A stretch of 57,483 bases of DNA from a virus: IMG/VR virus record IMGVR_UViG_3300028840_004876. One strand, given 5' to 3'. A model generated the notes under the pieces. It did not search any database. It was not told the origin of the DNA and saw nothing but the letters and a program-made list of their open reading frames with translations. Within the stretch, counting starts at the first letter, position 1, and each line of letters begins with the position of its first letter. Positions 145-35,705 of this stretch are shown here, piece after piece. Position numbers and translations under genes: made by a program.

Positions 145-2435
145 GGGCTACCGCTCAGTCGATTACGGCCGCGCCGCTCAACGCCGAGGCCGATCTCCAA
201 GCGACGACTCTTGATGTCGAAACGCCGCTCGCCCCGCTCAACGCCGAGGCCGAGCTTCAGGACGCGACTGCCGACGGTGAGGTGACGGAGACTCTCGCGT
301 CGCTTGACATCTCGATGGACTTCATTGCGGCCTCGTTCAACCCGGGGCCCGTGTCCATCGCACCGGCGTCGCTCAACCCGGAGATGGACGTACCCGCTGC
401 GACGCTGCCTGCGCCAGACGCGCAAGTAGACGCGGACCCGCTCAACCCTGAAGCTGAACTCCCGGCCACGTCGCTTGACGCGGAAGGCTCGATGGCGGCC
501 GCCCCGCTCAACGCTGAGGCCGAGCTCATCGATGTAACCCATGACATCGACATACCGGCTGCACAGCTCAACCCTGAGGCCGAGCTTCAGGACGCGACTG
601 CCGACGGCGAGGCTTCGATGGCTGCGCCTCCTCTCAACCCTGAGGCCGAGATTCTCGACGCTTCTGCGACCGCGGAAGGGTCGATGGCCGCATCGCCCCT
701 CAACCCGGAGGCCGAGCTCGTCGATGTAACCCACGATGTTGACATCCCGGCTGCACAGCTCAACCCTGAGGCCGACGTCCCGGCCACGTCGTTCGACGCT
801 GAGGCTTCGGTGGCTGCGGCGCCCCTCAACCCTGAGGCCGATGTCATCGATGTAACCCATGACGTTGACATACCGGCTGCACAGCTCAACCCTGAGGCCG
901 AGCTCATCGCGGCGGTGGTCGATGGTCCGGGCGTAGTGGCTGGCGTCCCGCTCAACCCGGAGATAGAGCTGCCCGCTGCCGTAGCCACGGGCGGTGGCAC
1001 GGCGCAGATAGACGCCGACCCGCTCAACCCGGAGATCGACATCGTCGCCGCTGTCGTGGCGACCGCGGGTGACGAACTCTGGGTCACGAAGCAAACGCTG
1101 CGACTCGTCGGGCGTCGCACGCCCACCGTGGTCCCGGTGGAGATCGACGGCGACACGGTCTTGCTGAGTCTCGTGCCACATAACTGGATCGCGCAGGTCA
1201 CGGTCGAGTCGTCGTTCCTCACAGACGTCACGCGCTCTGAGACCATGCGTGAGGAGCGCGTCTCTCTCCGTGAGAAGCCTCTGCGCCTCGCAACCTTTCA
1301 GCACACCGGGATGTCGCGCGCGGACTCAGCGCGGATCATGATGAACATGGCTCGCATCGCGAACGGCGGGGCACCTGTCCCGCTTCATTGCGACGCGACG
1401 CGGCTGACGCAGACGGCGGGGCTCGGAGCGCAAACGCTGACAGGGGACTTCCGTTGGCGCCGCTTCTTCCCCGGGGCGCGTCTCGTCATCCATACGTGGG
1501 ACGCATCGGGTCGCCCGACGGATGTTGAGATCCACGCCATCGAGAAGATCTCCGCGGACCGCCAAGTCGTGACGCTCGTGACAACGCTGGCCGCGGCGAA
1601 GGCGTCAGGCGCGCGGGTGATCCCGCTGCTCGATTGCGACGTCACCGCAGAGTCTTCGGCGCAGGTGGTCAGCGATGCGAACGTCGACCTCACGATCACG
1701 TTCGCCGAGAAGCCCGGCGCGTCCTCGCTCCCGGCCACGATCATGGATGTGGCGCCGTGGCTCCAGCATCAAGACGGGCTGCCGATCCTTGACGTGTCGG
1801 GAGACTGGTCCGCCGGTCACCAACTCAGAGTCATGGCCTCTGGCGAGAGGGCTCGCGACGGTCGTGCCTCTGTGTTCGCAGCCACCGGAGACGCGCCGCG
1901 CTTCGCACACACGATCAACTTGAATGCGCTCACTCGCGAGCGTGCGTGGGACGTCATCCAGTTCTTCGAGTCGCGACGCGGCCGGGCCCGGCCGTTCTGG
2001 CTGGTAGCTCCGCTGTCTCCGTGGACGTTGGAGAACGTGAACGGGACCACGATCAAGATCGCGCGCGTCGGGAACATCGAGGACGTCCAGGACTTCGTGA
2101 AGCACATCGGCTTCGTGCTACGTGACGGGACCGTGGTCATCCGCACAGTGACCACCGCGTACGACAACGGGACGCACTTCCTCATCGGGCTACAGGGCGC
2201 TCTGCCCGCGTCGGTGACCACCTCCGCGGTTCGGCGTCTGTCACCGGCGTGGCGTGTTCGCATGGAGCGCGATGCGTTCACCGAGCGCTGGACCACGGAC
2301 GGGATCTGCACTATGAGATTCGATGCCATCGACGTCGACGACGAGGACGCGCGCGTGACGCAGCTCGAGGACGATGATGATCGCACGCTGCTGGTGACGC
2401 GGCAGGTCGTCCGCGTGCTGGGAGCTCTCTCATGA
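1..2435 (+). CDS. Tail protein, downstream part of a gene that wraps the contig ends. The full gene is 56775..57339 joined to 1..2435, about 999 aa. It has a LamG-like N-domain, LNPEAEL tandem repeats and a distal-tail (DUF2460/lambda gpM-like) C-domain.
   Basis: The frame is open from nt 3. The same peptide NDPWVMFRPAARPVSLWVPG is encoded at both window ends, and track ORF 96..2435 is in that frame. The C-terminal region has the FFESRRGRARPFWLV motif. The gene sits directly upstream of gpL/gpK/gpJ-like genes. Confidence 0.75.
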   Translation, partial: GGNGYHRCGPIYLWRRVLTPEEIWELHNDPWVMFRPAARPVSLWVPGGATAQSITAAPLNAEADLQATTLDVETPLAPLNAEAELQDATADGEVTETLASLDISMDFIAASFNPGPVSIAPASLNPEMDVPAATLPAPDAQVDADPLNPEAELPATSLDAEGSMAAAPLNAEAELIDVTHDIDIPAAQLNPEAELQDATADGEASMAAPPLNPEAEILDASATAEGSMAASPLNPEAELVDVTHDVDIPAAQLNPEADVPATSFDAEASVAAAPLNPEADVIDVTHDVDIPAAQLNPEAELIAAVVDGPGVVAGVPLNPEIELPAAVATGGGTAQIDADPLNPEIDIVAAVVATAGDELWVTKQTLRLVGRRTPTVVPVEIDGDTVLLSLVPHNWIAQVTVESSFLTDVTRSETMREERVSLREKPLRLATFQHTGMSRADSARIMMNMARIANGGAPVPLHCDATRLTQTAGLGAQTLTGDFRWRRFFPGARLVIHTWDASGRPTDVEIHAIEKISADRQVVTLVTTLAAAKASGARVIPLLDCDVTAESSAQVVSDANVDLTITFAEKPGASSLPATIMDVAPWLQHQDGLPILDVSGDWSAGHQLRVMASGERARDGRASVFAATGDAPRFAHTINLNALTRERAWDVIQFFESRRGRARPFWLVAPLSPWTLENVNGTTIKIARVGNIEDVQDFVKHIGFVLRDGTVVIRTVTTAYDNGTHFLIGLQGALPASVTTSAVRRLSPAWRVRMERDAFTERWTTDGICTMRFDAIDVDDEDARVTQLEDDDDRTLLVTRQVVRVLGALS
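175..1060 (+). repeat. In-frame tandem repeat array inside the tail gene: about 13 copies of (P/Q)LN(P/A)E(A/I/M)(E/D)(L/V/I) spaced 20-24 aa apart
   Basis: LNxE cores fall at aa 28, 48, 93, 116, 138, 158, 180, 202, 222, 244, 264, 286 and 310 of track ORF 96..2435. Three near-identical nucleotide copies of gtaacccaYgaYRtYgacatMccggctgcacagctcaaccctgaggccga start near 535, 726 and 853. Confidence 0.9.
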
Positions 2436-3699: not shown

Positions 3700-6386
3700 T
3701 CAGCATGGGCCTGTCCTTCCTGGCAGGCTTCATCGCCGAGCAGACGCGGAAGAAGGGTCGTCGTGCGTCGCTTCAAGACGACAAGCCCACGACGATCGCA
3801 TCTCGCGGTGCGTTCATCGCGTATCTACTCGGCGTTAGGCGGCTCGGTCCGATCTTCGCTTGGGTGGGTGACAAGACCAGCGGCCGCGAGCGCACGAGCT
3901 CTTGGTCCGGAAAGGGCGGCGGCTCCGAGACCAAGACCAAGAAGGCCACCGTCTACTTCGAGAGCGGGTGGCACCACCTCTGCGTCGGACCGGCCACGGC
4001 GATTCATGCCATCTACGAGAACGGGAGAGACATCCTCGGCTACTCCATCGACTCGACGTCACACCCGAGCGGGACGACCGTCGACCTCGGGAAGTACGGG
4101 AAGTTCGACATCTACTGGGGCGAGACTGATCAACCGGTCAATACGTGGCTCGGCAACGCAACGCGTGTGGGAATCGAGTCGCGCTGGCCGTTCGGCTGCT
4201 ACATCCAGTGGACCAAGAAGCGTCTCGGCACCGTGTCGCAGTGGCCGTTGCTCGACTACGTAGTGGAGGTGCGACCGGGCTACGCCGTCAATGTGACGGC
4301 TGACTCGGCGTGGATCGACCCGACGTTCACTCTCGGCTCTTACTCCGAGTCGTGCGACAAGGCGACGTCCGGCGCCGAAGGCACGGGGCGCTTCCGCGTC
4401 AAGGGCCGAAAGGCCACGAAGTTCAACGCGGGAGACCGGATCAAAGTCCAGGGAAACCACGCGAACAACGACGGCGACTACGTCATCAAGTCGATCACGG
4501 TCACGACCGTCGGGTACAAGACCACGAAGACGAACATCTACGTCTACGGCGGAGTGACGACGGACGTGGCCAGTCCAGCGGGCACGATCACGCTGTACGA
4601 GTCGGACAAGAACGGCGGCGCGAACCCGGCGTACGTGATCGACCAGCTCCTGTTCGCGACGCACCCGCACGGGCTCGGGCTCGACGTGTCAAACTACGAC
4701 ATCAGCACGCTCGACGCTATCGCGACGGCGCTCGGCACCTCGGGTGAACGCCTGCCCGTGTCTTCGCTGGCCGTCGATGGTGAGGACGCGCAGTCGCTTC
4801 TGGCCGAGCTGCTACAGGACATCGGAATCGCGATGCGATGGAACGTGACCACCGCGCTGTGGGAGTTCCATCTGATCCGCGAGGAGACAGCGCGGCCGCA
4901 GGTGCCTGCCAAGCTGCTGCTCCCGCCGTTGCCGGAAGTGACCACGGTCCTCGACCAGCAGCGACCCGTGGACAAGCTCATCTTCACGTTCCCGTCGTGG
5001 CTCGAGCGCTTCAAGGAGTACACGCTGGTCGTGGACGACGACGCTCTCGCCGAGACGCGCGGGCGCCCGAGGCCGCGAACGATCCACCTGCCCACCATCA
5101 TCGACATCGAGACGGCCACGATGGTCGCGTCGCGTCGCGCGCAGGAAGCGCTCGGCGTTGTGACGGCGTGGCGGCTCGTGGTCCAAGGCGAGGCGTGTCT
5201 CCTGCGCCCCGGCGATAGCATCGACGTGGAAGGCATCACAGACCCGCTGCGCGTCATGTCGATCACCCACCAGCAGGACAGCGGTGCGGTGGAGATCGAA
5301 GCCATCACCGACTACTATTCGGTCCCGGCCACGGAGGAGGACGCGCCTGCGTCGTTCACCCCTGCGACCGACATCGAAGAGGAGATCCTGCCGGACGAGG
5401 AGTGGGAGCCCATCGAGGTTCCGCCTGGCATCACGCCCGTGACTCCGCGGTATGGGATCCCGGTGCTGCGCCCGCTCGTGTTCATCCCCATCATTCGCGG
5501 CAGCGCCGCCACCGTGGGGCATGAGGTGTACATCTCCACGGACGACTCGACGTTCACCTCGCTCGGCGACGACGAGGGCGTGTACTCGGGCGGGCTGCTC
5601 GAGGAAGACTTCCCGCTCTCTGGCGCAACGCTGGTTGAGACGGGGCCCGAGTTCACTGCCGAGGGCGACGACATCGCGAGCGTCGCGCAGGATCTCAGCG
5701 CGGACACCGAGGGGTGGCGCGCGGGCAAGCAGATGGTGTTCATCGGGAGCGAGATCCTGTTTGTCCGGGAGATCACCGCAGTGAGCGGGGACACGTACCG
5801 TCTGGACGGCGTGCTCCGCGGTCGCCTCGGAACCGCTGAGGAAGAGCACAGCATCGACGACCCGGTGTTCATCGTCCCGTATGAAGACCTCACAGTCTAC
5901 GGCGACTTGCTCATGCGGCCCGGTGAGACCTACTACTTCAAGGTCGTGCCGTGGGGCAACCAGTCGATCCCGCTCGATGAGCTGCCGTCGAAGTCGATCA
6001 CTCTCGTGGGCAACGGCATCGTGCCGCCGGCGGTCGTCAACCTCCGCAACGATCTCATGAACTCGTACTTCGCAGGAACAGACTCGCCGACGTTCGAGTG
6101 GACATACCGCTTCGGCCGCGACCCGGGATCGGGTTCCGGCAATCAAGCTTCCGGCGAGGCGTGCGCTGCGAGCGCTGTTGAGGGCGAGTTCCTCATCGAC
6201 GTTCTCGATGCGAGCGACGTCGTGAAGCGCAGCCTCACGGTGACCGAGCCGACCTGGCAGTACACGAACGCGAACATGCTGGCCGACTTCGGCGGCGCGG
6301 CCCCGTCCTCTTTCAAGATCAGCGTCGTCCACGCCGTTGGCGGTCGAGCCAGCGCCGCGACGGTGCTCACGATGACCAAGCACTAG
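3672..6386 (+). CDS. Central tail tip / host-specificity protein (lambda gpJ-like, GTA g15-like), 904 aa
   Basis: Large ORF after the gpL/gpK-like genes. It has a hydrophobic N-terminus (MAQVFVPFVISMGLSFLAGFIA) and the usual size and order for gpJ-class proteins. Confidence 0.7.
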   Translation: MAQVFVPFVISMGLSFLAGFIAEQTRKKGRRASLQDDKPTTIASRGAFIAYLLGVRRLGPIFAWVGDKTSGRERTSSWSGKGGGSETKTKKATVYFESGWHHLCVGPATAIHAIYENGRDILGYSIDSTSHPSGTTVDLGKYGKFDIYWGETDQPVNTWLGNATRVGIESRWPFGCYIQWTKKRLGTVSQWPLLDYVVEVRPGYAVNVTADSAWIDPTFTLGSYSESCDKATSGAEGTGRFRVKGRKATKFNAGDRIKVQGNHANNDGDYVIKSITVTTVGYKTTKTNIYVYGGVTTDVASPAGTITLYESDKNGGANPAYVIDQLLFATHPHGLGLDVSNYDISTLDAIATALGTSGERLPVSSLAVDGEDAQSLLAELLQDIGIAMRWNVTTALWEFHLIREETARPQVPAKLLLPPLPEVTTVLDQQRPVDKLIFTFPSWLERFKEYTLVVDDDALAETRGRPRPRTIHLPTIIDIETATMVASRRAQEALGVVTAWRLVVQGEACLLRPGDSIDVEGITDPLRVMSITHQQDSGAVEIEAITDYYSVPATEEDAPASFTPATDIEEEILPDEEWEPIEVPPGITPVTPRYGIPVLRPLVFIPIIRGSAATVGHEVYISTDDSTFTSLGDDEGVYSGGLLEEDFPLSGATLVETGPEFTAEGDDIASVAQDLSADTEGWRAGKQMVFIGSEILFVREITAVSGDTYRLDGVLRGRLGTAEEEHSIDDPVFIVPYEDLTVYGDLLMRPGETYYFKVVPWGNQSIPLDELPSKSITLVGNGIVPPAVVNLRNDLMNSYFAGTDSPTFEWTYRFGRDPGSGSGNQASGEACAASAVEGEFLIDVLDASDVVKRSLTVTEPTWQYTNANMLADFGGAAPSSFKISVVHAVGGRASAATVLTMTKH

Positions 6387-6396: not shown

Positions 6397-6822
6397 ATGG
6401 CTCGACCCACGCATGCGACGGTGCTCTCGTCTCACCAGAACTGGGACGCAGAGATCCGTGCCAACTTCAACCTCGTCTTCACGACGCCGATTCCGATCCC
6501 GCGCTACGCTAACTCTGCGGCGCTTCCGGCGGCTGCGGACTATGAGGACTGTCTTGCGATGACGGCCGACACCCACAAGCTCTACCACAGCGACGGGACG
6601 TCCTGGCTGTTGGTGGACAACGCTGCCGCGGGGTCGGCAATCGCGGACCTCAGCGTCAGCGCCGTCGCGGATCCGTCCGACTCGCCGACGACTGCGGACA
6701 GCCTGCGCGACGATCTCGTCGCGACGACGCTCGCGGATCTCGCGACGGCGCACGGCGAGATCGAGAGCAAGATCAACGCGATCCTCGCGGCGTTGCGCGA
6801 CCACGGGCTGATCGCAACGTAG
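6397..6822 (+). CDS. Hypothetical virion protein, last gene of the tail module (141 aa)
   Basis: GGAGA RBS upstream of the ATG. The C-terminal segment is EIESKINAILAALRDHGLIAT. I recognised no catalytic motif. Confidence 0.6.
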   Translation: MARPTHATVLSSHQNWDAEIRANFNLVFTTPIPIPRYANSAALPAAADYEDCLAMTADTHKLYHSDGTSWLLVDNAAAGSAIADLSVSAVADPSDSPTTADSLRDDLVATTLADLATAHGEIESKINAILAALRDHGLIAT

Positions 6823-6824
6823 CA

Positions 6825-6841
6825 TGGCACCAAAGGTGCCA
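6825..6841. promoter_or_regulatory. Palindrome TGGCACCAAAGGTGCCA, a putative operator
   Basis: 7-bp perfect arms with a 3-nt spacer. Confidence 0.5.
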
Positions 6842-7001
6842 GGGGTAACTGGCAAATGCGCCTGCGGCGGGAGCCGCCTGTCTCGGCAAGAAGAGCTTAG
6901 AATAATAGTACCTGGCTGAGGTCTACTTTCAATTCAACGTCCATACCTCGGGCGTTGGCGGTCCAGCCCCAGGGCGAGTTAGGCGCACTGTACGATACCC
7001 C

Positions 7002-7018
7002 TGGCACCAACGGTGCCA
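7002..7018. promoter_or_regulatory. Palindrome TGGCACCAACGGTGCCA, a putative operator
   Basis: 7-bp perfect arms with a 3-nt spacer. CTGAGAAAATCTC follows at 7020. Confidence 0.5.
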
Positions 7019-7052
7019 CCTGAGAAAATCTCGCCCGCCTACCGCTTTTCCC

Positions 7053-7081
7053 TGTACACCTACGCGTGGGTCGGGTACAAT
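7053..7081 (+). promoter_or_regulatory. Putative sigma70-type promoter: TGTACA, 17-nt spacer, TACAAT
   Basis: The spacing is exactly 17 nt. The downstream leader carries tcgattg...ccgcacgaacaggag, as in the early cassettes, and runs into ATG 7130. Confidence 0.5.
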
Positions 7082-7129
7082 GTCCCTTGGACATTGACAC
7101 TTTCGATTGCCGCACGAACAGGAGCCGAC

Positions 7130-7318
7130 ATGGAAAACACGAACGAGACGCACGACTGGCTGGCCGAGGCCGAAGCAGCTTTCGCGGCGAACCGCTGGAG
7201 CGACAGCGAGACGACGATCAGCGCTGAGCAGCTGGCGGAGGCCGAGGCGCCTCGCAAGCGGTCGTGCTTCCTTGACACGCTCGCCGAGGCAGTCGAGCGC
7301 TTCGGACTCGAGAGCTAG
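7130..7318 (+). CDS. Hypothetical protein (62 aa, acidic)
   Basis: The start was moved from track 7013 to ATG 7130, which follows gaacaggagccgac (RBS). It is the first gene after element A. Confidence 0.6.
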   Translation: MENTNETHDWLAEAEAAFAANRWSDSETTISAEQLAEAEAPRKRSCFLDTLAEAVERFGLES

Positions 7319-9499
7319 ATGACTTCCCACAGTGATAGGAGCCGACCGATGACCACGACACTTCCCGCCCCGGTGCTCGACGAGCACCCCATCATCGAGC
7401 CCCTGGGCGAAGCGACCCAGGACCTCTTCACCCCCCTCCCGCTCCGGGACAACGACTTCCTTCTCATCGAGACCGACGAGAAGGGCGAGGCGTTCGAGAT
7501 GCGCCCCTTCCGCGGGCGGTTCCTCGACGTGAACGAGGACGCGAGCGCGTACGCCGTCGAGGCTGTCCGCAAGAACTCGCGCGGCGACACGGTCCTCGAG
7601 GTGAGCGGCCCGCCGAGCTGGGCGTCGCGACAGGACTTCTTCCGTCGCATTCCGCAGGCGCATCAGGGCCAGAAGGATTTCTGGCAGCGCAACCAAGGCG
7701 AGTACACGTGCGCGGCCACGGACTACACGTGCATCGTGACGCATCACAGCTGGCCGCAGTCGCGGCTCGTGTTCGGGGACGACAACGCGCGGCTCCTCTA
7801 CACGTTCCTGCTCAAGCGCTTCATGCGCCAGACGATTCGCGCGCAGCTCCAGAGTAAGTTCAAGCTCGCCGGTGAAGTGCCGGTCATGCCGGACGACTAC
7901 TATCCGGACGAGCTCAGGCAGTTCGCCGCCGCCGACTACCAGAAGACGGCGATGATGATGAGCCTCGGCCAGGAGGGCACGGCGCTCTTCATGGACCGGG
8001 GAACCGGCAAGACCTACACGACCATCGATCGCATCTGCCTCGAGGCGCACCGCACTCGCCGAGGCAAGATGCCCGGCGAAGAGGCGCACATGATGCGCGT
8101 CCTCGTGATCGCGCCTCTTCAGGTCCGCCTCAACTGGCAGGAGGAGTTCACGAAGTTCGCATGGGTCGGCGGCAAGGTCACCGTCCTCCGCGGCGGCAAG
8201 GAGAAGCGGGTCAAGATCCTCACGCACGCCATTCGCACCGAGGACGACTGCGACTTCTCTGCGGTCATCGTCTCCTACGACACCGCCGCCCGCGACGTGT
8301 CGTACCTCAGCAAGCTTCAGTGGGATCTCGTCGTCCTCGACGAGTCGCATCGGATCAAGTCGTCGCAGACCAAGCGGTGGAAGCAGATCAAGAAGCTGCG
8401 CGCCGCGTCGCGCCGTCGGCAGATCCTCACGGGAACGCCCTACGCGAACTCCATCTTCGACCTCTATACCCAGCTCGAGTTCCTCGGCGAGGGGCTCAGC
8501 GGGTTCTCGAGCTTCCGTTCGTTCATGAAGTTCCACGGGAAGTTCCAGAAGACCGAGGGCGGCCGGACGTCGCTCGTCGGGATGAACAACATCCCGCTCA
8601 TGCGCGAGCGCCTCGCTCGTCTGTCGTTCGCGGTCTCGAAGGAGGAGGCTGGCCTCAAGCTCCCGCCGAAGGTGTACGACACTCTCGAGGTCGAGATGAC
8701 CCGGAAGCAGGCCAAGTTCTACGAGCAGATGGCGACGCAGCTCGCGGTCGAGATCGAAGACATGATGAGCGGCGCGCTCGACAACACGGCGAACCGCGCG
8801 ATGACGGCCGAGAACATCCTCACCAAGCTCCTGCGCCTCGCGCAGATCACGAGCGGGCACGTCGTGTGGGACGCCACCTACTCCGATGACGGCGAGCAGC
8901 TCACCGAGAAGCGCGTCCAGCAGATCGACCCTGAGAAGAACCCGAAGGTCGTCGCGCTGGTCGAGACGCTTCAGGAGGAACTCGCTGAGGACCCGCTCGC
9001 GAAGAAGATCGTGTGGGCCGTCTTCGTGCCGGACATCAAGGAGATCGAGAAGGAGCTCACGCGGGCCTTCGGCGCTGACGCGGTGGTGACCTACTACGGC
9101 GCCACGAGCGAGCGCGGCCGCGAGGAAGCTATCGCTCGCTTCAACTGCGATCCGAACTGCCGCGTGATGATCGCGAATCCGCAGACGGCGGGCGAGGGTC
9201 TCAACCTGCTCGGCTACGATCAGAAGGATCCCGACAACTCGCCGACCTACTGCGATCATCAGATCGTCTTCTCGGCCAACTGGTCGCACGTGCTTCGGGC
9301 GCAGCTCGAGGACCGCGCGCATCGGCGCGGCACGCGCACGACCGTTCGCGTGACGGACCTGGTGGTGCCGCACAGCATCGACACGGAGATCCGGGCGCGC
9401 GTCCAGGGCAAGGCTGCGGACGCGGCGAAGGTCAATGACATCAAGGACATTCTCGAGTCCGTCCTCGGCCTCGAGCTCAACGGATTCGGGAGGCTCTAA
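7319..9499 (+). CDS. SNF2-family DNA-dependent ATPase/helicase
   Basis: LVVLDESHRIKS (motif II), ILTGTPYANS (motif III), IANPQTAGEGLNL and EDRAHRRGT (motifs V/VI). Confidence 0.9.
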   Translation: MTSHSDRSRPMTTTLPAPVLDEHPIIEPLGEATQDLFTPLPLRDNDFLLIETDEKGEAFEMRPFRGRFLDVNEDASAYAVEAVRKNSRGDTVLEVSGPPSWASRQDFFRRIPQAHQGQKDFWQRNQGEYTCAATDYTCIVTHHSWPQSRLVFGDDNARLLYTFLLKRFMRQTIRAQLQSKFKLAGEVPVMPDDYYPDELRQFAAADYQKTAMMMSLGQEGTALFMDRGTGKTYTTIDRICLEAHRTRRGKMPGEEAHMMRVLVIAPLQVRLNWQEEFTKFAWVGGKVTVLRGGKEKRVKILTHAIRTEDDCDFSAVIVSYDTAARDVSYLSKLQWDLVVLDESHRIKSSQTKRWKQIKKLRAASRRRQILTGTPYANSIFDLYTQLEFLGEGLSGFSSFRSFMKFHGKFQKTEGGRTSLVGMNNIPLMRERLARLSFAVSKEEAGLKLPPKVYDTLEVEMTRKQAKFYEQMATQLAVEIEDMMSGALDNTANRAMTAENILTKLLRLAQITSGHVVWDATYSDDGEQLTEKRVQQIDPEKNPKVVALVETLQEELAEDPLAKKIVWAVFVPDIKEIEKELTRAFGADAVVTYYGATSERGREEAIARFNCDPNCRVMIANPQTAGEGLNLLGYDQKDPDNSPTYCDHQIVFSANWSHVLRAQLEDRAHRRGTRTTVRVTDLVVPHSIDTEIRARVQGKAADAAKVNDIKDILESVLGLELNGFGRL

Positions 9500-14365: not shown

Positions 14366-15064
14366 ATGCCTGAGAGATTGGAGACGCGACGGCTGTTGCG
14401 CCACCGAGCGGCGGCGACGTCACGACCTTACATGGCGGCGCAGCTGCCCGGTGGAGAGGTGCTCGTGTTCGACACGCGGCCCTCCGGCGGTGGCCCGTTC
14501 TTCCCGGACATGGACGAGGACCGGGCGGCAGCGTACGCGCTGTCGATGTGCCGCGCGTGGAATGACGCGCTCGGTCGCGAGGACACCACACCACACACGG
14601 ATCTCGTACGACGCTTCCACGAGCGCCACCACTTCGGGATCGACCGTAACCTCTGCGAGGAAGGCGGCGATCACGACATGTTCCCCGCTGCGATGCTCAC
14701 GGCCATGGCGATGCAGGTGCTGGCGATGTCCGAGACGCTCGCGGCGTACGCCAGGAAGAGCGAACCGAACGGCGACTGGCGCATGAGTCGCGCGCACAAC
14801 ATGACCGAGGAACTCGCCGAGGTGCTCTTGGCCATGGCGGCCAAGGATCCTGTCGCGCTGCTCGACGGCCTGGGTGACTTGGCGTATGTCACGCATGGCA
14901 CCGCGGTCGTGTACGGGCTTCCGCTGGAGCGCGGGTTCCGGGAGATCCATCGGTCGAACATGACCAAGGACCCCGCGCCGGAAGGCGAGGTCACCCTGCA
15001 CCCGGTCAAGGGCGAGAACTACGAGCCGCCGGATCTCGCCGGTTGCTTCGAGGTGACGGAATGA
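14366..15064 (+). CDS. All-alpha NTP pyrophosphohydrolase (MazG / PRA-PH-like)
   Basis: MTEELAEVLLAMAAKDPVALLDGLGDLAYVTHGTAVVYGLPLERGFREIHRSNMTK matches the EExxE...D...D...sNmsK pattern of MazG-like phage enzymes. A gagaggag RBS lies upstream. Confidence 0.7.
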   Translation: MPERLETRRLLRHRAAATSRPYMAAQLPGGEVLVFDTRPSGGGPFFPDMDEDRAAAYALSMCRAWNDALGREDTTPHTDLVRRFHERHHFGIDRNLCEEGGDHDMFPAAMLTAMAMQVLAMSETLAAYARKSEPNGDWRMSRAHNMTEELAEVLLAMAAKDPVALLDGLGDLAYVTHGTAVVYGLPLERGFREIHRSNMTKDPAPEGEVTLHPVKGENYEPPDLAGCFEVTE

Positions 15065-16107
15065 GCCAGGTCAACCACGCCGCGGATCGCAAGGGCGCGG
15101 CGCTGTGCCTCGACGAGGCGTGGCACTACGCGGCGGCCGAGCTGTGGGACCACGCCGCTCACGCGACGTCGCGAGACGGTGACATCTTCGCGGAGCTTCC
15201 GGCCGCGCGTCTCATGCTCATGAACACCCGCGCCGTGTGGATGATGGGGCCGCGCAGCCCTTCACCGCTGTACGCTGCGGGCGAGCTCATGTGGTACCTC
15301 AGCGGGTCGGAGGATGGCGAGTTCATCTGCCACTATGCTCCGAGTTACGAGCGGTTCCTCAACGACGGCGTCGCGCTCGGCGCGTACGGGCCGCACATTC
15401 GTGGCCCGCTCAAGAGCGTGGGTGGCTTCGACCCGCTCATGCGGATCGCGTCGCTTCTCACAGCGAAGCCCGATACCCGGCAGGCCGTGTTGCCGATCTA
15501 CGGCTATCACGACCTCCAGGCTGCGGGCTCGCTGGCGAACGACATACCCTGCACACTCGGTCTTCAGTTCCTCGTGCGCGATTCGAGTCTCAACGTGATC
15601 TCGACCATGCGCTCGAACGACCTATGGCAGGGTCTGCCGTACGACATCTTCGCGTTCGCGACCATCAACGTTCTGCTGGCGCACCACCTCGACCTCTCGC
15701 CAGGATGGATCTGCCACCAGGCGGGATCGCTTCACCTGTACGAGCGCCACGCTGAGGCGACGCACCGCGCGATACTCAGCGGCCAAGACATGTACGCGCG
15801 ACCGCCGAAGCTGGGGTGGTGGACGCGTCGCGAGCCGGGCCGGCTGTTCCACGATCTCGCCGCCGCGGTCGCGCTCGAGCGTCGCTTTCGCGAGGATCGC
15901 GAGGTGCCGCTGGCCGAAGCGATCTCGTGCATCCAGCAGAGTCTCGGGGCGCGAACGCTGCTCGGCACCATCGTCGCGCTCTGCTACGCGAACCGCCGGG
16001 CCTTCAACATCGACGAAGCGAACGCGATGAACGTCGTCATCCCCGACTGGCTCATCGCCAAGGTCATCAACTGGCAGGGCCGTCAGCGAGCGTGGAGGAA
16101 GTCATGA
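15061..16107 (+). CDS. Thymidylate-synthase-family enzyme with the cytosine-type Asp. Predicted dCMP C5-hydroxymethylase or dCMP C5-methylase.
   Basis: ATGA overlap with the upstream stop. DIPCTLGLQFLVRDSSLNVISTMRSNDLWQGLPYDIFAFATI...GSLHLYERH aligns without gaps to E. coli ThyA [41 protein letters not shown]...GDTHLYSNH. Asp replaces Asn177. Confidence 0.75.
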   Translation: MSQVNHAADRKGAALCLDEAWHYAAAELWDHAAHATSRDGDIFAELPAARLMLMNTRAVWMMGPRSPSPLYAAGELMWYLSGSEDGEFICHYAPSYERFLNDGVALGAYGPHIRGPLKSVGGFDPLMRIASLLTAKPDTRQAVLPIYGYHDLQAAGSLANDIPCTLGLQFLVRDSSLNVISTMRSNDLWQGLPYDIFAFATINVLLAHHLDLSPGWICHQAGSLHLYERHAEATHRAILSGQDMYARPPKLGWWTRREPGRLFHDLAAAVALERRFREDREVPLAEAISCIQQSLGARTLLGTIVALCYANRRAFNIDEANAMNVVIPDWLIAKVINWQGRQRAWRKS

Positions 16108-16652
16108 TCACGCTCATCATCGAAGGCGCAGACAACCTCGGCAAGACCACGGCCGCGAAGAGGCTCGCGGCGCTGCACCTCGATCGGACCGGGGAGGCTA
16201 TCCCCGTCATCCATCACGGCCCGCCAACGGACCCCGTGATGGAATACTCGACCGAGCTCCTGCGCCCTGCCATACACGACCGTGGCCATCTTGGCTGGCT
16301 TGTGTGGCAAGGCATGCTGGCGCAAAGCGGGACGGAGTTCGACCGCCTCGCGATGGAGCAGCTGGTCCGGGTGCTGCGCGTCGTCCATCGTGTGATCGTC
16401 GTGTGCCTGTACGCCGATGACGACTGGTACTGCGAGCGCATCGCAGAGTACGACGATCGCGATGAGCTCATGCCGCCCAACATTCGACGGGTCGCGAACC
16501 GCGCGTTCGCGCAGCTCTGCTGGTCGCGCGACGGTAACTGTGAGAAGTACGTCGACATCCCTTACAACGTCAGCGTCAGCGGGTTCCCCAGCGATGCGAC
16601 CTTGAACCGCTGGCTGGACCGCTGCTCCCTGCGCCAGAGTGAGGCGCTCTGA
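16104..16652 (+). CDS. P-loop kinase, thymidylate-kinase-like (dNMP kinase; a DNA-level kinase is an alternative)
   Basis: ATGA overlap with the upstream stop. LIIEGADNLGKTTAAKRLA (P-loop, Tmk-like) and AIHDRGHLGWLVWQ (DRY..S..AYQ-like). Confidence 0.65.
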   Translation: MITLIIEGADNLGKTTAAKRLAALHLDRTGEAIPVIHHGPPTDPVMEYSTELLRPAIHDRGHLGWLVWQGMLAQSGTEFDRLAMEQLVRVLRVVHRVIVVCLYADDDWYCERIAEYDDRDELMPPNIRRVANRAFAQLCWSRDGNCEKYVDIPYNVSVSGFPSDATLNRWLDRCSLRQSEAL

Positions 16653-18681
16653 GGTCACAGTGATAGAGCTTGAGACCCACGACGGTCGAGTCGTCAATCT
16701 CGTTGAGCACGCCCGTGAGCTGCCAGAGTTCACGGGCGTTCAGCGGGTCTACGCCGACTGCGAGACCACGTCCGGCGACCCGAAGGTGAAAGCCTTCAAG
16801 CCGTACGGTGGGCATCGCATCGCTGGCGTGGCCGTGCTGCGCGACGACGAGGCGACGGCGTGGTACGTCCCGGTGCGCCACAAGCATGGGCGCAACATCC
16901 CGGCGCAGGCGGTGCGTCGCTGGCTCCGAGACATGATGACCGTCCCGGAGTGGGTGAACCACAACGTCAAGTTCGACGCGCACTTTGTCGCGTGCGCCGG
17001 CCGTGGCGACGAGCTCGTCTTCCCTGGCCGCATGATCGACACCGCCACGCTCGCCAAGTGCCACGACACGGATCGCATGGGTCACGGGCTCAAGGCGGTA
17101 TGCGCCGACTGGCTCGAGCAAGATCTCTCTGAGCAGGACGAGGTCGAGGCGTACCTGAAGAACGAGAAGACCAAGGACTACGGGGAGCTGCCAGCGGATC
17201 TCTGCGGGCGGTACGCCGGCCAGGACGTCTTGATGAACCGCGAGCTCATGCGGTTCCTCGAGGACCAGCGGCCGGAACAGATGCGCGACACGTGGGAGAC
17301 CGAGATCCTTCTCACGCCTGTCCTCTTCGACATCGAGCGAGCGGGCATGCGTGTGAACGATCTCGCCGTGAAGAAGCTCAAAGTCAAGACGCTGCGGTCG
17401 ATACTCGGGGCGCAGCAGGAGATCGTGGACCTCACTGACGGCCGCGAGTTCGTCGACTCTAGCAAGAACCTGTACGACCTCATCGTGAACGTGCTCGGTC
17501 TTCCGGTCCTCAAGTGGAACACGGACCCCGAGTCGAAGGAGCGTGGCTCGCCGTCCTTCGACAAGGAAGCGCTTGAGCTGTACGGTATGCACCCCGAGGT
17601 GCTTCACCAGCCGAGGAACGCGCGCGTGATCGAGCTCATCAAGTCGGCGCGCGCTGAGTCGCACTTCCTCAGCAACTACTTGGAGGTCTTCGGTCAGGCG
17701 GTTGAGACCGGTGGCTTCGTTCATCCGAGCTTCAACCAGCTCATTCGGACGGGGCGCATGAGCGCCTCGGACCCGAACGTGATGGGGATGAGCAAGGCCG
17801 CCAAGGATCTCATCATCCCCGACGACGACGAGTACGGCATCCTCACTGCGGACGCAGAGCAGATTGAGTTCCGTCTCATCGTCCACTACATCCGTGATGC
17901 CGATGCGATCGCAGCGTACGCGCGTGACCCGGACACGGACTTCCACATGTGGGCGGCGCGGCTGTGCGAGGTCGAGCGCACGCCCGCGAAGACTCTCAAC
18001 TTTGCGATGGGCTACGGCGCAGGGAAGAAGCGCGTCGTGTCGCTGCTGCTCACGGACCCCACGATCATGCACGACGTCGGCGAGATCATCGCCCAGCAGA
18101 TCGAGGAGGGTCGCGTACCCGAACGCCTACGCGCACAGGCGTACCACCGGCTGTGCGAGCGTCGCGCGCAGGGCGTGTACACGCGGTACCACGAACGCCT
18201 GCCCGGGATCAAGAGGACCTCGCGAGCTGCGGCGCAGAAGTGCATCATGCGTGGGTACGTCTTCAACCCGTTCGGCCGTCGCCGTCACTTGCCGCCTCGC
18301 GCTGCGCACAAGGCCTTCAACACCATCGTCCAGGGCGGTGCGATGGACATCATCAAGCGGCGGATGATTCGGTTGGCTCCGCGTTACAACTCGTGGGTGC
18401 GGAACAGCGACATCCGTCTCTTCGGAAACGTCCACGATGAGCTGCCGCTTCACGGGCCACGCGAGGCGCTGGAGGACCCGAAGATCCAGGCGCGCATCCA
18501 CGCGGTGCTCGAGACCACAGACATCGACTTCCGGGTTCCGTTCACCTGGGAGGCCGGCTACTCACCGCTGTCGTGGAAGGCGGCGGGAGCGAAAGAGAAC
18601 GTCATCGACAAGATCCGGCTGCGGAAGATCGCCCTCGAGGAGGGCTTCCTCGGCCCGCAAATGCGGAGGTACTACGAGTGA
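16639..18681 (+). CDS. Family A DNA polymerase with a 3'-5' exonuclease domain
   Basis: YADCETT (ExoI), NHNVKFDAHF (ExoII), YAGQDV (ExoIII), ADAEQIEFRLIVHY (motif A), RTPAKTLNFAMGYGAG (motif B), NVHDEL (motif C). The start is GTG 16639 or GTG 16660. Confidence 0.93.
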   Translation: MRRSEVTVIELETHDGRVVNLVEHARELPEFTGVQRVYADCETTSGDPKVKAFKPYGGHRIAGVAVLRDDEATAWYVPVRHKHGRNIPAQAVRRWLRDMMTVPEWVNHNVKFDAHFVACAGRGDELVFPGRMIDTATLAKCHDTDRMGHGLKAVCADWLEQDLSEQDEVEAYLKNEKTKDYGELPADLCGRYAGQDVLMNRELMRFLEDQRPEQMRDTWETEILLTPVLFDIERAGMRVNDLAVKKLKVKTLRSILGAQQEIVDLTDGREFVDSSKNLYDLIVNVLGLPVLKWNTDPESKERGSPSFDKEALELYGMHPEVLHQPRNARVIELIKSARAESHFLSNYLEVFGQAVETGGFVHPSFNQLIRTGRMSASDPNVMGMSKAAKDLIIPDDDEYGILTADAEQIEFRLIVHYIRDADAIAAYARDPDTDFHMWAARLCEVERTPAKTLNFAMGYGAGKKRVVSLLLTDPTIMHDVGEIIAQQIEEGRVPERLRAQAYHRLCERRAQGVYTRYHERLPGIKRTSRAAAQKCIMRGYVFNPFGRRRHLPPRAAHKAFNTIVQGGAMDIIKRRMIRLAPRYNSWVRNSDIRLFGNVHDELPLHGPREALEDPKIQARIHAVLETTDIDFRVPFTWEAGYSPLSWKAAGAKENVIDKIRLRKIALEEGFLGPQMRRYYE

Positions 18682-19928
18682 AGAAGGAAGACGGGACCGC
18701 AATCGGAGTCCACGCGTTCGCGGGTGGCCTCACACTGGGCATGGACCGCGTGTTCAACGTCAAGGGTCAACTCGAAGTCTTCGACCTCGGCTGCGACAGC
18801 GTGCGTCACAATCTCGGGATCCCCGTCGTCCGTTGCGACGACGCGTCGTGGATGGACTCGCCGCCCGAGTGGGCCGAGAAGGCGCAGATCGTCTTCGGCA
18901 ACCCGCGGTGCACGGCGTTCAGCTGTCTCAACCGCGGGTGCGGGAAAGACGGGTACGGGCCCGAGGGCCGCGCGACCAAGGACGTTCGGCAGGCCGTCGA
19001 CTTCGTGGAGCGCGTGCGTCCGCACGTGTTCGTGTGGGAGTCCGTTCAGCCAGCGATCACCGCGGGCCTTCCGCTCGTCCTCGACATCGAGGAGCGCCTC
19101 GCCAAGCTGCGGTACTCGCCGACGCGGCTGCTGCTCAACGCAGCGACGTGGCACAACTCGCAGAACAGGCGTCGCTTCTTCCACGTGTTCACGAAGCCTG
19201 GCATCCACTTCTGGCCCGACGTCCCGGAGGTCCCGAAGAAGTGGCTCACCGTCCGCGAGGTGATCGAGGACCTCGCTGAGCACGAGGTGACCAGCGACCA
19301 TCAGTGGAACTACGAGACACCGGAGGACGCGGCGCAGGACGAGGTGCTCAACCACCACTGGTGGGACGACCCGTGCTTCACGCGTCTCGTCTGCTCGCTC
19401 GTCCCGCCAGGGCGCTCGATGAATGACGTGCCGTGGGACGACCTGCTCAAGATCCAGGCGGAGGGATTCAGCGGTTACGTCGACGGCTACCTCAGAGGCG
19501 CAGGCTCGTTCTCGCGTCACGCCGCGCGACGTCTCCATCCCGACGGCGCGAGCCGCGTCGTGTACGGTGGCTGGCACATGACGATCCACCCGTGGCTCGA
19601 CCGCGGCGTCACCGTGCGTGAGACCGCGAGGCTCATGGGGTTCCCCGACGACTGGGTCTTCCTTGGTCCGGCCGGTGGCTACGCGCAGATCGGGAAGGGC
19701 GTCGTGCCGGCCGTCGCGGAGTGGCTCGCGTGGCAGATCCTTCGAGCCATCGACTCGCCGAACCCGACCAAGCGCAAGAAGGAGTGGCGGTTCAACACGC
19801 GGACGCGGATGGTCGAGGAGCGCCGCGTGCCGGATGGCGAGGTGCGCACGTTCGATCTCACGCGCATGACTGCGAAGGTGCCGCGCCCGAAGCTCGCGCC
19901 TCGACGGAGCGTGTTCGAAGGCTACTGA
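18678..19928 (+). CDS. DNA (cytosine-5) methyltransferase-like protein with atypical catalytic motifs
   Basis: GTGA overlap with the polymerase stop. HAFAGGLTLG (motif I), FGNPRCTAFS (motif IV, PRC instead of PC), FVWESV (motif VI, ESV instead of ENV), SQNRRRFF (motif VIII), TVRETARLMGFPDDW (IX), GKGVVPAV (X). Confidence 0.8.
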   Translation: MKKEDGTAIGVHAFAGGLTLGMDRVFNVKGQLEVFDLGCDSVRHNLGIPVVRCDDASWMDSPPEWAEKAQIVFGNPRCTAFSCLNRGCGKDGYGPEGRATKDVRQAVDFVERVRPHVFVWESVQPAITAGLPLVLDIEERLAKLRYSPTRLLLNAATWHNSQNRRRFFHVFTKPGIHFWPDVPEVPKKWLTVREVIEDLAEHEVTSDHQWNYETPEDAAQDEVLNHHWWDDPCFTRLVCSLVPPGRSMNDVPWDDLLKIQAEGFSGYVDGYLRGAGSFSRHAARRLHPDGASRVVYGGWHMTIHPWLDRGVTVRETARLMGFPDDWVFLGPAGGYAQIGKGVVPAVAEWLAWQILRAIDSPNPTKRKKEWRFNTRTRMVEERRVPDGEVRTFDLTRMTAKVPRPKLAPRRSVFEGY

Positions 19929-19957
19929 GAAAAACTCTGAGTTAGCGGAGATTGCTG

Positions 19958-19986
19958 TTGACGGCCCATGGCCCGTGGTGTAGAAT
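19958..19986 (+). promoter_or_regulatory. Early promoter P1: TTGACG, 17-nt spacer, TAGAAT
   Basis: Exact 17-nt spacer. CTGAGAAAAACTCTGAG lies upstream at 19925. The conserved leader aacagtcgattgaaaccacgggccgcacagaacaggag follows. Confidence 0.7.
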
Positions 19987-20034
19987 TTCAACAGTCGATT
20001 GAAACCACGGGCCGCACAGAACAGGAGACGAACA

Positions 20035-20499: not shown

Positions 20500-20507
20500 A
20501 GCTGCGC

Positions 20508-20536
20508 GCCGGGCGCCTCCACGAGGGGCGCCCGGC
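20508..20536 (+). terminator. Hairpin terminator gccgggcgcc-tccacgagg-ggcgcccggc
   Basis: 10-bp GC stem with a 9-nt loop. The stem-loop is identical to the one at 24604..24632. Confidence 0.55.
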
Positions 20537-20539
20537 TGA

Positions 20540-20555
20540 CTGAGAAATTTCTCAG
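20540..20555. promoter_or_regulatory. Perfect 16-bp palindrome CTGAGAAATTTCTCAG upstream of P2, an operator or UP-like element
   Basis: Self-complementary. Related CTGAGAAA motifs occur at 7020, 19925, 24230 and 24636, each upstream of a predicted promoter. Confidence 0.5.
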
Positions 20556-20562
20556 AAGGTTG

Positions 20563-20591
20563 TGGACGGGTCGTGGCCGCAAGCGTACACT
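20563..20591 (+). promoter_or_regulatory. Early promoter P2: TGGACG, 17-nt spacer, TACACT
   Basis: Same architecture and leader as P1 (aacagtcgattgaaaccacggccgca...gaacaggag). Confidence 0.65.
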
Positions 20592-20644
20592 AGCAACAGT
20601 CGATTGAAACCACGGCCGCACGGAACCACGAACAGGAGCCAGCC

Positions 20645-24246: not shown

Positions 24247-24259
24247 CTCTGAGTTTGCT

Positions 24260-24288
24260 GTGGACGGGTCGTGGTCGCAACGCTACAC
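24260..24288 (+). promoter_or_regulatory. Early promoter P3: TGGACG, 17-nt spacer, TACACT
   Basis: The spacer ggtcgtggtcgcaacgc is nearly identical to that of P2. The leader ends in acacgaacaggagacgacg followed by ATG. Confidence 0.65.
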
Positions 24289-24326
24289 TAGCAACAGTAG
24301 AAGTGAAACACGAACAGGAGACGACG

Positions 24327-24593: not shown

Positions 24594-24603
24594 CACGCCG
24601 GAC

Positions 24604-24632
24604 GCCGGGCGCCTCCACGAGGGGCGCCCGGC
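24604..24632 (+). terminator. Hairpin terminator, identical stem-loop to 20508..20536
   Basis: gccgggcgcc-tccacgagg-ggcgcccggc. Confidence 0.55.
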
Positions 24633-24658
24633 AAACTGAGAAACTTTGAAAAGAGTAG

Positions 24659-34837: not shown

Positions 34838-34891
34838 TGCGGGTCAAGTCTCTACCAGTACAGGACTTAGAGCGTTTCGACGGGTCGCAGG

Positions 34892-34909
34892 TGGCCCCAC
34901 GTGGGGCCA
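34892..34909. promoter_or_regulatory. Perfect 18-bp palindrome TGGCCCCACGTGGGGCCA
   Basis: Self-complementary, including the CG centre. Confidence 0.55.
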
Positions 34910-35069
34910 TGGGTAACTGGCAAATGCGTCTGCGGCTGGTAGCCCCTACCCTATCGAAACGCCCTAACCACCTGATAGATAAAGACCTACACTGACCCAG
35001 GTACTGTTATTCCTAGCTTTCCGGGAGGAGAGGCCTGGGAGCGCGGCAGGCGCACATACCAGTTACCCC

Positions 35070-35087
35070 TGGCCCCACGTGGGGCCA
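35070..35087. promoter_or_regulatory. Perfect 18-bp palindrome TGGCCCCACGTGGGGCCA, 24 nt upstream of the regulator ATG
   Basis: Identical to the palindrome at 34892..34909. Confidence 0.55.
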
Positions 35088-35110
35088 CCTGATTTTGGAG
35101 CCCGGGAGGA

Positions 35111-35674
35111 ATGAGCGAGGAACGCGAGATACTGGACGCGATCGCGAAGGCAGAGGCGCAAGAGCAACGCGACATTCTGCGACGCTGTGACTGGGAGGAT
35201 CCCGCGGACGTCGCGCTCTTGAGAAGCAGCGACAGGCTGGCAGCACGGATGCGTGCGATACGCCGCCTCTGCCAGGGTATGCGCTGCCCGGGGTGCGGCG
35301 ACATCGTGCTGAGGTCGCGCTCATGGGTGTTGCGGAACGACGGCGAGAGCGCGGTCTGCCGGTCGTGCTTCTTCCGCATGCGTGAGCGCGGCGAGAAGAA
35401 GGTGACGATAGCTTCGAGTCTCGTCTCCTTCGAGGAAGTGCGGTACCACATCGAGCCGCACACGCTGGTGCTGGCGCGTGAGGCTGCGGGCATACCGCAA
35501 GCAGAGTTCGCGCGTCGCGCCGGATGGAGTCGAGGCTGGCAGCGCAAGCTCGAGGCGGGCGAACGCATCAGGCTTCAAGCTGAGGCAGTGCAGACAATCT
35601 TCACCGTGCTTCGAGAGGCCGGCGTGGAACTCGAAGACGGGGACAGGGTGGCCCCAAGTGGGGCCAGGCAGTAA
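35111..35674 (+). CDS. Transcriptional regulator: zinc ribbon plus XRE-type helix-turn-helix
   Basis: The gggagga RBS lies upstream. CPGCG...CRSC. LAREAAGIPQAEFARRAGWSRGWQRKLEAGER has the HTH_XRE pattern. Confidence 0.7.
   Translation: MSEEREILDAIAKAEAQEQRDILRRCDWEDPADVALLRSSDRLAARMRAIRRLCQGMRCPGCGDIVLRSRSWVLRNDGESAVCRSCFFRMRERGEKKVTIASSLVSFEEVRYHIEPHTLVLAREAAGIPQAEFARRAGWSRGWQRKLEAGERIRLQAEAVQTIFTVLREAGVELEDGDRVAPSGARQ
35649..35666. promoter_or_regulatory. Palindrome TGGCCCCA-AG-TGGGGCCA inside the 3' end of the regulator gene, just upstream of the next promoter
   Basis: 8-bp perfect arms, followed by ggcagtaactg as in the element arms. Confidence 0.5.
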
Positions 35675-35676: not shown

Positions 35677-35705
35677 GTGGACATTGACGGTCCACATGGT
35701 ATAAT
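35677..35705 (+). promoter_or_regulatory. Putative promoter: GTGGAC, 17-nt spacer, TATAAT, with the inverted repeat tgtggac/gtccaca over the -35 region
   Basis: tgtggacattgacggtccacatggtataat. The -10 box matches the consensus. Confidence 0.6.

Follow-up and report, generated by a model that had tools for sequence, protein, structure and literature searches.

Two inverted-repeat elements at the early/late junctions

The window analysed here is a 57,483-nt stretch of viral DNA whose first and last 144 bases are identical, indicating that the source DNA is a circular assembly of 57,339 bp; the 144-bp end overlap falls inside a tail gene. The source is an uncultured lytic siphophage with a genomic G+C content of 65% and all plausible genes on the + strand. 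Domain searches reveal tail proteins encoded up to position 6822, the last late gene being a tail-fibre-like gene (6397-6822), as well as a SNF2 helicase gene (7319-9499), a large terminase (TerL) gene (37372-39618) and a portal gene (40891-43164), with virion genes beyond. The early block, dedicated to replication and nucleotide metabolism, occupies ~7.05-34.7 kb and also encodes a primase-helicase, DNA polymerase A (PolA), thymidylate synthases, a C5-methylase, a ligase and, as its last gene, a VRR-NUC nuclease (34281-34718). The late block comprises a regulator gene (35111..35674, + strand) and the packaging, head and tail genes.

Two non-coding inverted-repeat elements of ~200 bp lie at the borders of these blocks. 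A first-pass annotation had proposed one such element, with a second, diverged copy elsewhere, each separating two functional modules; both elements are real, and we place them at 6823-7020 (hereinafter designated element A) and 34888-35091 (hereinafter designated element B). The module boundaries are also borne out, with tail genes upstream of A and the SNF2, primase-helicase and PolA genes downstream of it, and with the VRR-NUC gene upstream of B and the HTH, TerL and portal genes downstream. Element A starts directly past the stop codon of the tail-fibre-like gene. Further downstream lie an early promoter-like site on the + strand (TGTACA-17-TACAAT, 7053..7081), which has the type of 5'UTR (TCGATTG..CACGAACAGGAG) seen in repeated early promoters, and the first early gene (7130-7318). 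Element B lies between the VRR-NUC gene and the regulator gene; its end is 20 nt from the regulator ATG, leaving no promoter space, and the regulator ribosome-binding site (RBS; GGGAGG) lies 9 nt past it. Positions 6400-7400, around element A, have no DNA match among 50,697 phage records. A 6.5-kb stretch of the window is identical in a Logan contig of SRR6963312, and an identical regulator gene is present in six further libraries besides that one.

Anatomy of elements A and B

Elements A and B are the two strongest intergenic long-range inverted repeats in the genome. In a gapless scan of the whole window with spacers of 60-230 nt, B ranks top (score 31), A scores 14, and the one other repeat scoring above A lies inside the portal gene. 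The B arms (34888-34936 and 35043-35091) span 49 nt at 88% complementarity and are 106 nt apart. The A arms (6825-6847 and 6996-7018) span 23 nt at 87% complementarity without a gap and reach ~39 nt when one gap is admitted, with 30/38 positions matching. The inverted arms described in the first pass are thus present in both copies.

Each arm had further been described as a 17-18-bp palindrome followed by a box. The palindromes are found in all four arms: the A left outer dyad TGGCACCAAAGGTGCCA (6825..6841, 17 bp), a putative operator or local hairpin; the A right outer dyad TGGCACCAACGGTGCCA (7002..7018); and the B outer dyad TGGCCCCACGTGGGGCCA, which is present on the left (34892..34909, 18 bp) and again on the right (35070..35087), there followed by CCTGATTTTG. 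The inner box is found in only three of the four arms, namely A left (GGGTAACTGGCAAATGCGCCTGCGGC, 6843..6868, carrying the motif TAACTGG(C/T)AAATG common to relatives), B left (GGGTAACTGGCAAATGCGTCTGCGGC, 34911..34936) and B right (GCGGCAGGCGCACATACCAGTTACCC, 35043..35068), and these same three arms hold the only exact matches to GGGTAACTGG in the window. The A right inner box (6981..7001) is degenerate, containing one indel and reading GGGGTATCG on the complementary strand. The left arms of A and B share GGGTAACTGGCAAATGCG(C/T)CTGCGGC in the same orientation, as the first reading had noted.

The A core (6870..6980) contains, at 6888-6940, the most AT-rich 20-40 bp of the genome. Its motifs AGAATAATAGTACCTGG and GGGCGTT have counterparts in the reverse-complemented B core (34937..35042), which has its AT-rich stretch at 34952-35010 and is inverted relative to the A core. 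The local alignment of the A core with the reverse complement of the B core scores 18, with 29/40 positions identical; dinucleotide-shuffled cores score 8.3 +/- 1.4, and none of 1000 shuffles reaches 18. The direct orientation gives a non-significant score of 7 for the same two cores. A promoter within the core was considered and rejected, as no sigma70-type -35/-10 pair is conserved across the elements; in the L040 relative, read by eye, no TAnnnT hexamer lies at the motif.

Two further B-type palindromes, absent from the first reading, flank these structures. The first, TGGCCCCATGTGGGGCCA (34820-34837), lies 55 nt upstream of element B; the second, TGGCCCCAAGTGGGGCCA (35649-35666), lies at the end of the regulator gene. 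The B-type palindrome is thereby present in four copies around the regulator gene (34820, 34892, 35070 and 35649), against a chance expectation of 0.04. A left-flank box, TTAGAGCGTTTCGA (34867..34880), is complementary to 34954-34967 inside the B core, and a left-flank/core pairing like the window's is found in L040 (9355-9372 with 9426-9443). A sigma54 reading of TGGCAC-N5-GTGC in the A-type dyad was dropped because the spacing in the B-type dyad is wrong.

Conservation at two syntenic junctions

Elements built in this way recur at these two syntenic junctions among about nine diverged metagenomic relatives, with arms of 23-60 nt enclosing an AT-rich core of 106-180 bp. One site follows the final tail gene, ahead of the SNF2 helicase gene (hereinafter designated the A-locus), and the other lies directly upstream of the gene for the Zn-ribbon/XRE-HTH protein (hereinafter designated the B-locus). 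The flanking proteins of the element-bearing phages are only 35-65% identical, and the arms differ among lineages yet remain inverted repeats. The motif TAACTGG(C/T)AAATG is kept across a genomic G+C range of 54-65%. Within a single genome, the two copies have near-identical arms and diverging cores.

B-locus elements are 200-230 bp long and end 16-72 nt before the regulator gene in all five lineages with readable DNA upstream of it (the window, L040, L043, L044 and L133); the gap is 16-30 nt in L040, L043 and L044. The regulator protein of L040 is 65% identical to that of the window, and the arms match at 31/32 positions in L043, over 32 nt at 75% in L044 and over 35 nt at 89% in L133. In the closest SNF2 relatives, the A-locus element occupies the gap that separates the final tail gene from SNF2, with arms of 32 nt at 84% (L048), 33 nt at 79% (L049), 32/32 (L051), 24/27 (L068/L069) and 23/28 (L186). 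L049 corresponds to the 64-kb contig ERR14794629_19969 and L068 to the 47-kb record IMGVR_UViG_3300042904_000367.

Beyond this group, none of ~50 more distantly related SNF2 phages has a repeat of this kind within 3.5 kb, and with ~480 kb of more distant SNF2 phages scanned, these elements are the only ones found. L187, a 64-kb contig, is co-linear with the window, its SNF2 protein being 47% identical, and has at the same junction a plain hairpin-plus-T-run terminator and a promoter in place of the element. In MW202657 the late genes lie on the strand opposite to that used in the window, and there is a single element, whose arms are 60 nt long.

The first reading had the core flipped between the two copies while the arms were not, and this holds in the window. 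The A-locus element of L051 and the B-locus element of L133 come from one metagenome, have equal G+C and share 33-37-nt arms at 97-100% identity, from which we infer a single source genome; such a genome would be the second with an inverted pair. The two cores align poorly, reverse complement giving the better match, and judging from the outermost arm bases it appears to be the entire element that is inverted here, beyond the core alone. The L043 core is a quasi-palindromic (TAC)n/(GTA)n sequence and the L047 core aligns with the L044 core in direct orientation, so that a per-locus orientation is secure only for within-genome pairs and close relatives.

Broader searches added little to this set. 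The exact arm pattern has no match in IMG/VR, where the SNF2 and HTH proteins, each used singly as the query, also returned no relatives. The core pattern gave 38 matches there, all chance matches in low-GC contigs. A metagenome scan with an arm-N-arm pattern recovered only the already known L051 phage (L158, L177), the other matches being unrelated: a tandem repeat in L165 and low-GC repeats in L159, L140, L142 and L160.

A regulator gene and an arm-like site at the late promoter

The gene that begins 20 nt past element B encodes a 187-aa protein combining a Zn-ribbon (CxxC..CxxC) with an XRE-type HTH, a candidate trans factor for the elements. The XRE-like assignment rests on Pfam HTH_31 and on weak PDB sequence matches (E-values 0.02-0.8) to XRE regulators, C.BclI and SinR; the AlphaFold model has a low mean pLDDT of 64. 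The HTH protein has no match among the phage records and falls into just five protein clusters (four besides its own) among 5.8 billion proteins. Wherever a homologue of the 35111-35674 gene could be found, an element of this kind lies directly upstream of it. The two elements form a pair of junction cassettes that is conserved and goes with a rare regulator gene, in a siphophage clade that has no cultured member.

The late promoter-like site (TGGACA-16-(TG)TATAAT, 35678..35705, + strand) is sigma70-like, with an 11/12 match, and lies directly behind the regulator gene, upstream of the packaging and virion genes. The fourth B-type dyad, TGGCCCCAAGTGGGGCCA (35649..35666), is centred at approximately -54.5 of this promoter, counted from its inferred start. 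An arm-motif site occupies the -54.5 position behind the regulator gene in three lineages. In L040 it reads TGGTCCCAAGTGGGACCA and precedes TGGACA-16-TACACT with equal geometry, carrying a symmetric C-to-T and G-to-A change. In L043 it reads TGTAAACTAGGTAGGTTACA, a near-copy of that genome's own arm end TGTAAACCAGATAGGTACA, and the promoter is TTGCTC-16-TATAGT. A systematic search with arm 14-mers returned no strong match outside the elements other than these -54.5 sites. At approximately -56 of the promoter, L133 has a weaker half-site resembling the arms, and no arm-like site is recognisable behind the regulator gene of L044.

Changes in the promoter-proximal site parallel those in the arms, and this argues for a DNA-binding protein acting in trans. 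The L043 half-sites are 5-7 bp long and 6-10 bp apart, a geometry that makes a stable hairpin impossible. XRE-class proteins bind dyads of 14-20 bp, often around their own gene, and a pattern of this kind is present here as four B-type and two A-type dyads of 17-18 bp, some of them around the regulator's gene. Judged from these sequence features, the XRE-type regulator, encoded between element B and the late promoter, is the obvious candidate binder. Among the four roles that the first-pass annotation had listed, a binding platform for the HTH regulator is the best supported, given the element upstream of every homologue and the co-varying -54.5 site.

A possible operator-flanked junction cassette

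Our preferred reading, which we hold tentatively, is that A and B are operator-flanked cassettes at the early/late junctions, and that their arms would, in addition, fold into an insulating hairpin in RNA that reads through. A and B would be two diverged copies of one junction cassette placed at the early/late borders of a single-strand gene layout, each consisting of two inverted arms of 35-50 bp around an AT-rich core, with the outer 17-18 bp of each arm forming a dyad-symmetric site. Within this scheme the layout, its conservation, the -54.5 site that changes together with the arms and the link to the regulator gene are observed; we infer the protein binding, the sign of regulation and the RNA processing. 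The dyads would be operators for the phage's own dimeric Zn-ribbon/XRE-HTH protein. Protein bound at the -54.5 dyad would turn late transcription on, and protein bound at the cassettes would grip the AT-rich core from its two flanks and bar RNA polymerase from the junction, acting either as a roadblock or through repression of nearby promoters. Should polymerase read through from the upstream block, the arms could pair as an RNA stem of 23-49 bp that either ends transcription or is cleaved by RNase III. In this way the cassette would keep early and late expression apart and determine how much regulator is made.

The order of features at A, wherein the last late gene's stop codon is followed by the element and then by an early-type promoter, is consistent with the operator-flanked cassette. 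So are the missing promoter space at B, the conserved arm motif, the near-identity of the arms beside diverging cores, the predicted hairpins and the ordinary terminator and promoter that L187 has in place of the element. Several observations sit less comfortably with it. The arm mismatches lack an RNA-type wobble bias, and a U-tract follows the right arm only in B. The local palindromes are confined to the window/L040 lineage, and the promoter-proximal copy is absent from L044 and weak in L133. The A dyads (17 bp) and B dyads (18 bp) differ, and one protein may read them unequally. Nor does an operator model give the opposite orientation of the cores an evident function. Near-perfect arms of 32-60 bp also exceed what an HTH dimer needs, so that the inner box and the long-range pairing require a second reason.

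Phage switch regions offer the closest parallel. In phi29, p4 sites lie between the A2b/A2c and A3 promoters, and in P2, Ogr sites lie at approximately -55 of the late promoters. As in these systems, a control region of ~200 bp stands here between temporal classes and carries dyads for a small phage regulator, with one site ~55 bp upstream of the late start point. Unlike them, the present genome has two cassettes at two junctions of a co-linear map, with arms of 23-60 nt and opposite cores, and its regulator, an XRE-HTH protein with a Zn ribbon, has no sequence relation to p4 or Ogr. If the operator-flanked reading is true, the cassettes, the adjacent regulator and the -54.5 site constitute a compact and experimentally testable early/late switch. 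The cassettes would also be a natural case in which DNA operator and RNA hairpin functions may overlie one inverted repeat.

Alternative readings of the elements

The elements might instead act at the RNA level alone, as intercistronic or 3'-UTR hairpins that serve as terminators, RNase III sites or mRNA stabilisers without any sequence-specific protein, which we consider rather unlikely. Position and predicted stability favour such a role. Every element is intergenic, and all are co-oriented with transcription; a stop codon immediately precedes A and an RBS immediately follows B, and since B leaves no promoter space before the regulator RBS, at least its right arm must be in the regulator mRNA. 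The predicted RNA folds are very stable, at -95 (A) and -123 (B) kcal/mol with z-scores of -4.4 and -8.3, and in 5/7 elements the - strand folds no better than the + strand. The inverted-repeat architecture is kept as the arm sequence changes among lineages, and L187 has an ordinary terminator at the equivalent junction. A 23-49-bp RNA stem is a good RNase III substrate, and the predicted closing stems, which span this range in intercistronic positions, would supply the at least ~20 bp of near-continuous double-stranded RNA in a transcribed region that marks such a site.

Other observations count against a purely RNA-level role. Mismatches between the arms comprise 28 G.T and 19 A.C pairs (p = 0.24) along with 72 transversions, showing no RNA-type wobble bias and no strand-specific signature. 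A U-tract is absent from 10/11 elements, and no T-run follows the right arm in L040, L043, L044, L048, L049, L051 or L133. The exception is B, whose right-arm hairpin plus the T-run CCTGATTTTG scores as a terminator and is the only terminator-like + strand site in the scan; nothing at A qualifies as a canonical intrinsic terminator. Rfam (4227 families) gives no hit at the gathering score across the whole window, and even up to an E-value of 5 only scattered sub-threshold matches to unrelated families appear around A and B. The window has no tRNA or tmRNA. The core motifs are oppositely oriented in the two copies and would thus be different sequences on one RNA strand, and the conservation of the arm motif across genomes together with the non-hairpin copy at -54.5 in L043 points to recognition of DNA. 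The hairpin role proposed in the first pass is thus plausible as regards position and predicted stability and goes unsupported as regards the wobble signature and, except at B, the U-tract. In view of the missing wobble bias, the T-run at B only, the lack of an Rfam family and the opposite cores, the RNA hairpin is likely a secondary property, acting as an insulator in read-through transcripts, rather than the primary cause of conservation. The elements resemble the RNase III sites of phage T7 and I-shaped or complex terminators in being stable hairpins between co-directional units, which would insulate and process polycistronic RNA. The T7 sites, by contrast, are 50-60 nt long and number ~10 per genome; the present genome has two elements of ~200 nt, with conserved sequence motifs in each arm and without a wobble bias.

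That the elements are replication origins, with inverted initiator-binding sites around an AT-rich unwinding element, one copy beside the replication genes and the second across the circle, seems improbable. Their layout is that of an AT-rich unwinding element flanked by repeated binding sites, and the first-pass suggestion of an origin-like or cruciform role finds support in the base composition, the A core being the genome's AT-rich maximum and the B core ranking fourth to sixth, a composition that would suit a promoter as well as an unwinding element. A immediately precedes the module encoding SNF2, primase-helicase and PolA, the mutually inverted copies are almost diametrically opposite (arcs of 27.9 and 29.1 kb), single-stranded DNA folds are strongly favoured (z-scores of -4.6 for A and -9.2 for B), and the arm motif is conserved among the relatives. 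The suggestion gains nothing from cumulative GC skew, which has no inflection at A or B and is uninformative as an origin test. No iterons or DnaA-box-like repeats are seen in or near the elements, the remaining AT-rich peaks of the genome are promoters, the candidate binder is encoded at the head of the late block, and the geometry of the -54.5 site is that of a transcription factor. HSV oriS/oriL and SPP1 oriL/oriR likewise place inverted boxes around an AT-rich centre, in more than one copy, one of which adjoins replication genes. The present elements differ in that no initiator was found for them; they are associated with no skew or other replication signal, and a copy of their site occupies a promoter-activation position.

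We give the same low weight to a broader possibility, that A and B are structure-dependent DNA elements, in which protein-capped inverted repeats extrude or fold around the AT-richest DNA as a matched, oppositely oriented pair. Such a pair could act as twin origins or fork-polar sites across the circle from each other, as self-insulating promoter cassettes, or as sites for inversion of a 28-kb half-genome. For the promoter variant, the long hairpin would form only in read-through RNA and would be absent from the cassette's own transcripts. MW202657, with its inverted late block and single element, would fit the 28-kb inversion. The flip/flop hairpins of the AAV ITR and of poxvirus telomeres similarly retain their arms and present the inner part in two inverted configurations. 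Those, unlike A and B, are ends of linear genomes with both forms at each end; A and B are internal to a circular genome, have unique genes on both sides and show one orientation per locus in the assemblies compared.

Least probable is a relic MITE-like or invertible element, whose terminal inverted repeats were once used by a transposase or invertase and whose core was flipped by recombination between arms: the 23-60-nt terminal inverted repeats around a non-coding core, the inverted core between arms of kept orientation in the window, the 33-49-bp arms common to both copies that could support recombination, and the inverted late block of MW202657 all fit it, but the elements are confined to two copies per genome at the same syntenic junctions between flanking proteins of low identity, with no multi-copy dispersal, no target-site duplication (flanks caacgtagca/cctgagaaaa at A and gggtcg/attttgg at B do not repeat), no recombinase, integrase or transposase in Pfam/PHROG scans of ~40 ORFs, one orientation in three independent assemblies of each of the L040 and L044 lineages, and outermost arm bases in L051/L133 that indicate inversion of the whole element. 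The corresponding role in the first pass is accordingly poorly supported. Correia/NEMIS, REP/BIME and ERIC elements are comparable in being intergenic sequences of 100-200 bp with terminal inverted repeats, a protein-binding core and hairpins that are RNase III-sensitive when transcribed; they are, however, multi-copy and dispersed, with target duplications in the case of Correia, whereas the two syntenic copies described here lack a duplication and are vertically conserved.

The elements in metagenomic assemblies

Two contigs, L048 and L042, start at an arm. We considered these starts as physical genome ends and set the idea aside, since breaks in the assembly graph at inverted or duplicated arms are the simpler explanation. 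If the operator-flanked cassette pair is as we propose, its arms would account for the breaks of these phage assemblies at the junctions, and the arms could serve to locate the junctions of related metagenomic phages.

Flanking box and relatives of the junction element

At the junction directly upstream of the Zn-ribbon/XRE-HTH regulator gene, the left-flank box of inverted-repeat element B (34867-34880) is complementary to a box in the AT-rich core (34954-34967), and a parallel arrangement is present in L040, a relative with an element at the same locus, where the flank box at 9355-9372 is complementary to the core box at 9426-9443. In both elements, the flank box could thus pair alternatively with the core box, leaving the left arm enclosed. 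The element in MW202657 (GenBank 'Caudoviricetes sp.') spans 16027-16259 and comprises a 113-nt core between 60-nt arms (50/60). The annotation places two small CDS for hypothetical proteins across parts of it, at 15925-16110 and 16225-16635; where they overlap the element they may be spurious.

Two independent contigs begin at or near an arm: position 1 of L048, a relative with the tail/SNF2-junction element, falls exactly at an arm, and position 1 of L042 lies 13 nt before one. These starts are most simply explained by assembly-graph breaks at inverted or duplicated arms. The window itself is a 57,339-bp circular assembly lacking defined genome ends, with positions 1-144 identical to 57340-57483, an exact 144-bp terminal overlap positioned within a gene.

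In L160, an unrelated metagenomic contig of 36% G+C, four direct iteron-like repeats TTATAACTGGCAAATGACAC occupy ~3850-4060 on the minus strand. They include the arm motif TAACTGGCAAATG, and an inverted copy follows. The likeness is probably coincidental, but the array resembles a plasmid or phage origin.

Terminator-promoter cassettes and other inverted repeats

Repeated terminator-promoter cassettes are found in the early region at 19945-20009, 20507-20614, 24248-24312 and 24603-24710, with the hairpin CGCCGGGCGCCTCCACGAGGGGCGCCCGGC recurring unchanged and CTGAGAAA coming after it. The promoters after the hairpins have the form GTGGACGG-N16-TACACT/TAGAAT and share the 5'UTR AACAGTCGATTGAAACCACGAACAGGAG; the same type of promoter and UTR lies 3' of element A, at 7053-7129. 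Elsewhere, a 29-nt inverted repeat (36653-36681/36694-36722; 86%, 12-nt loop) at the 3' end of ORF 36127-36765 is possibly a terminator, and another lies within the portal gene (42252-42277/42363-42388; 23/26, 85-nt spacer).

Gene content of the early and late blocks

The co-occurrence in the early block of genes for a ThyA-like protein (15043-16107), a C5 cytosine methylase (18573-19928), an RmlD-like reductase (22556-23281) and ThyX (31288-32082) suggests a DNA base-modification module. The first large late ORF (96-2435), whose product is probably a fibre-like protein, contains ~7 copies of diverged 66-nt (22-aa) repeats, CTCAACCCTGAGGCCGAG..., at window positions 149-1054.
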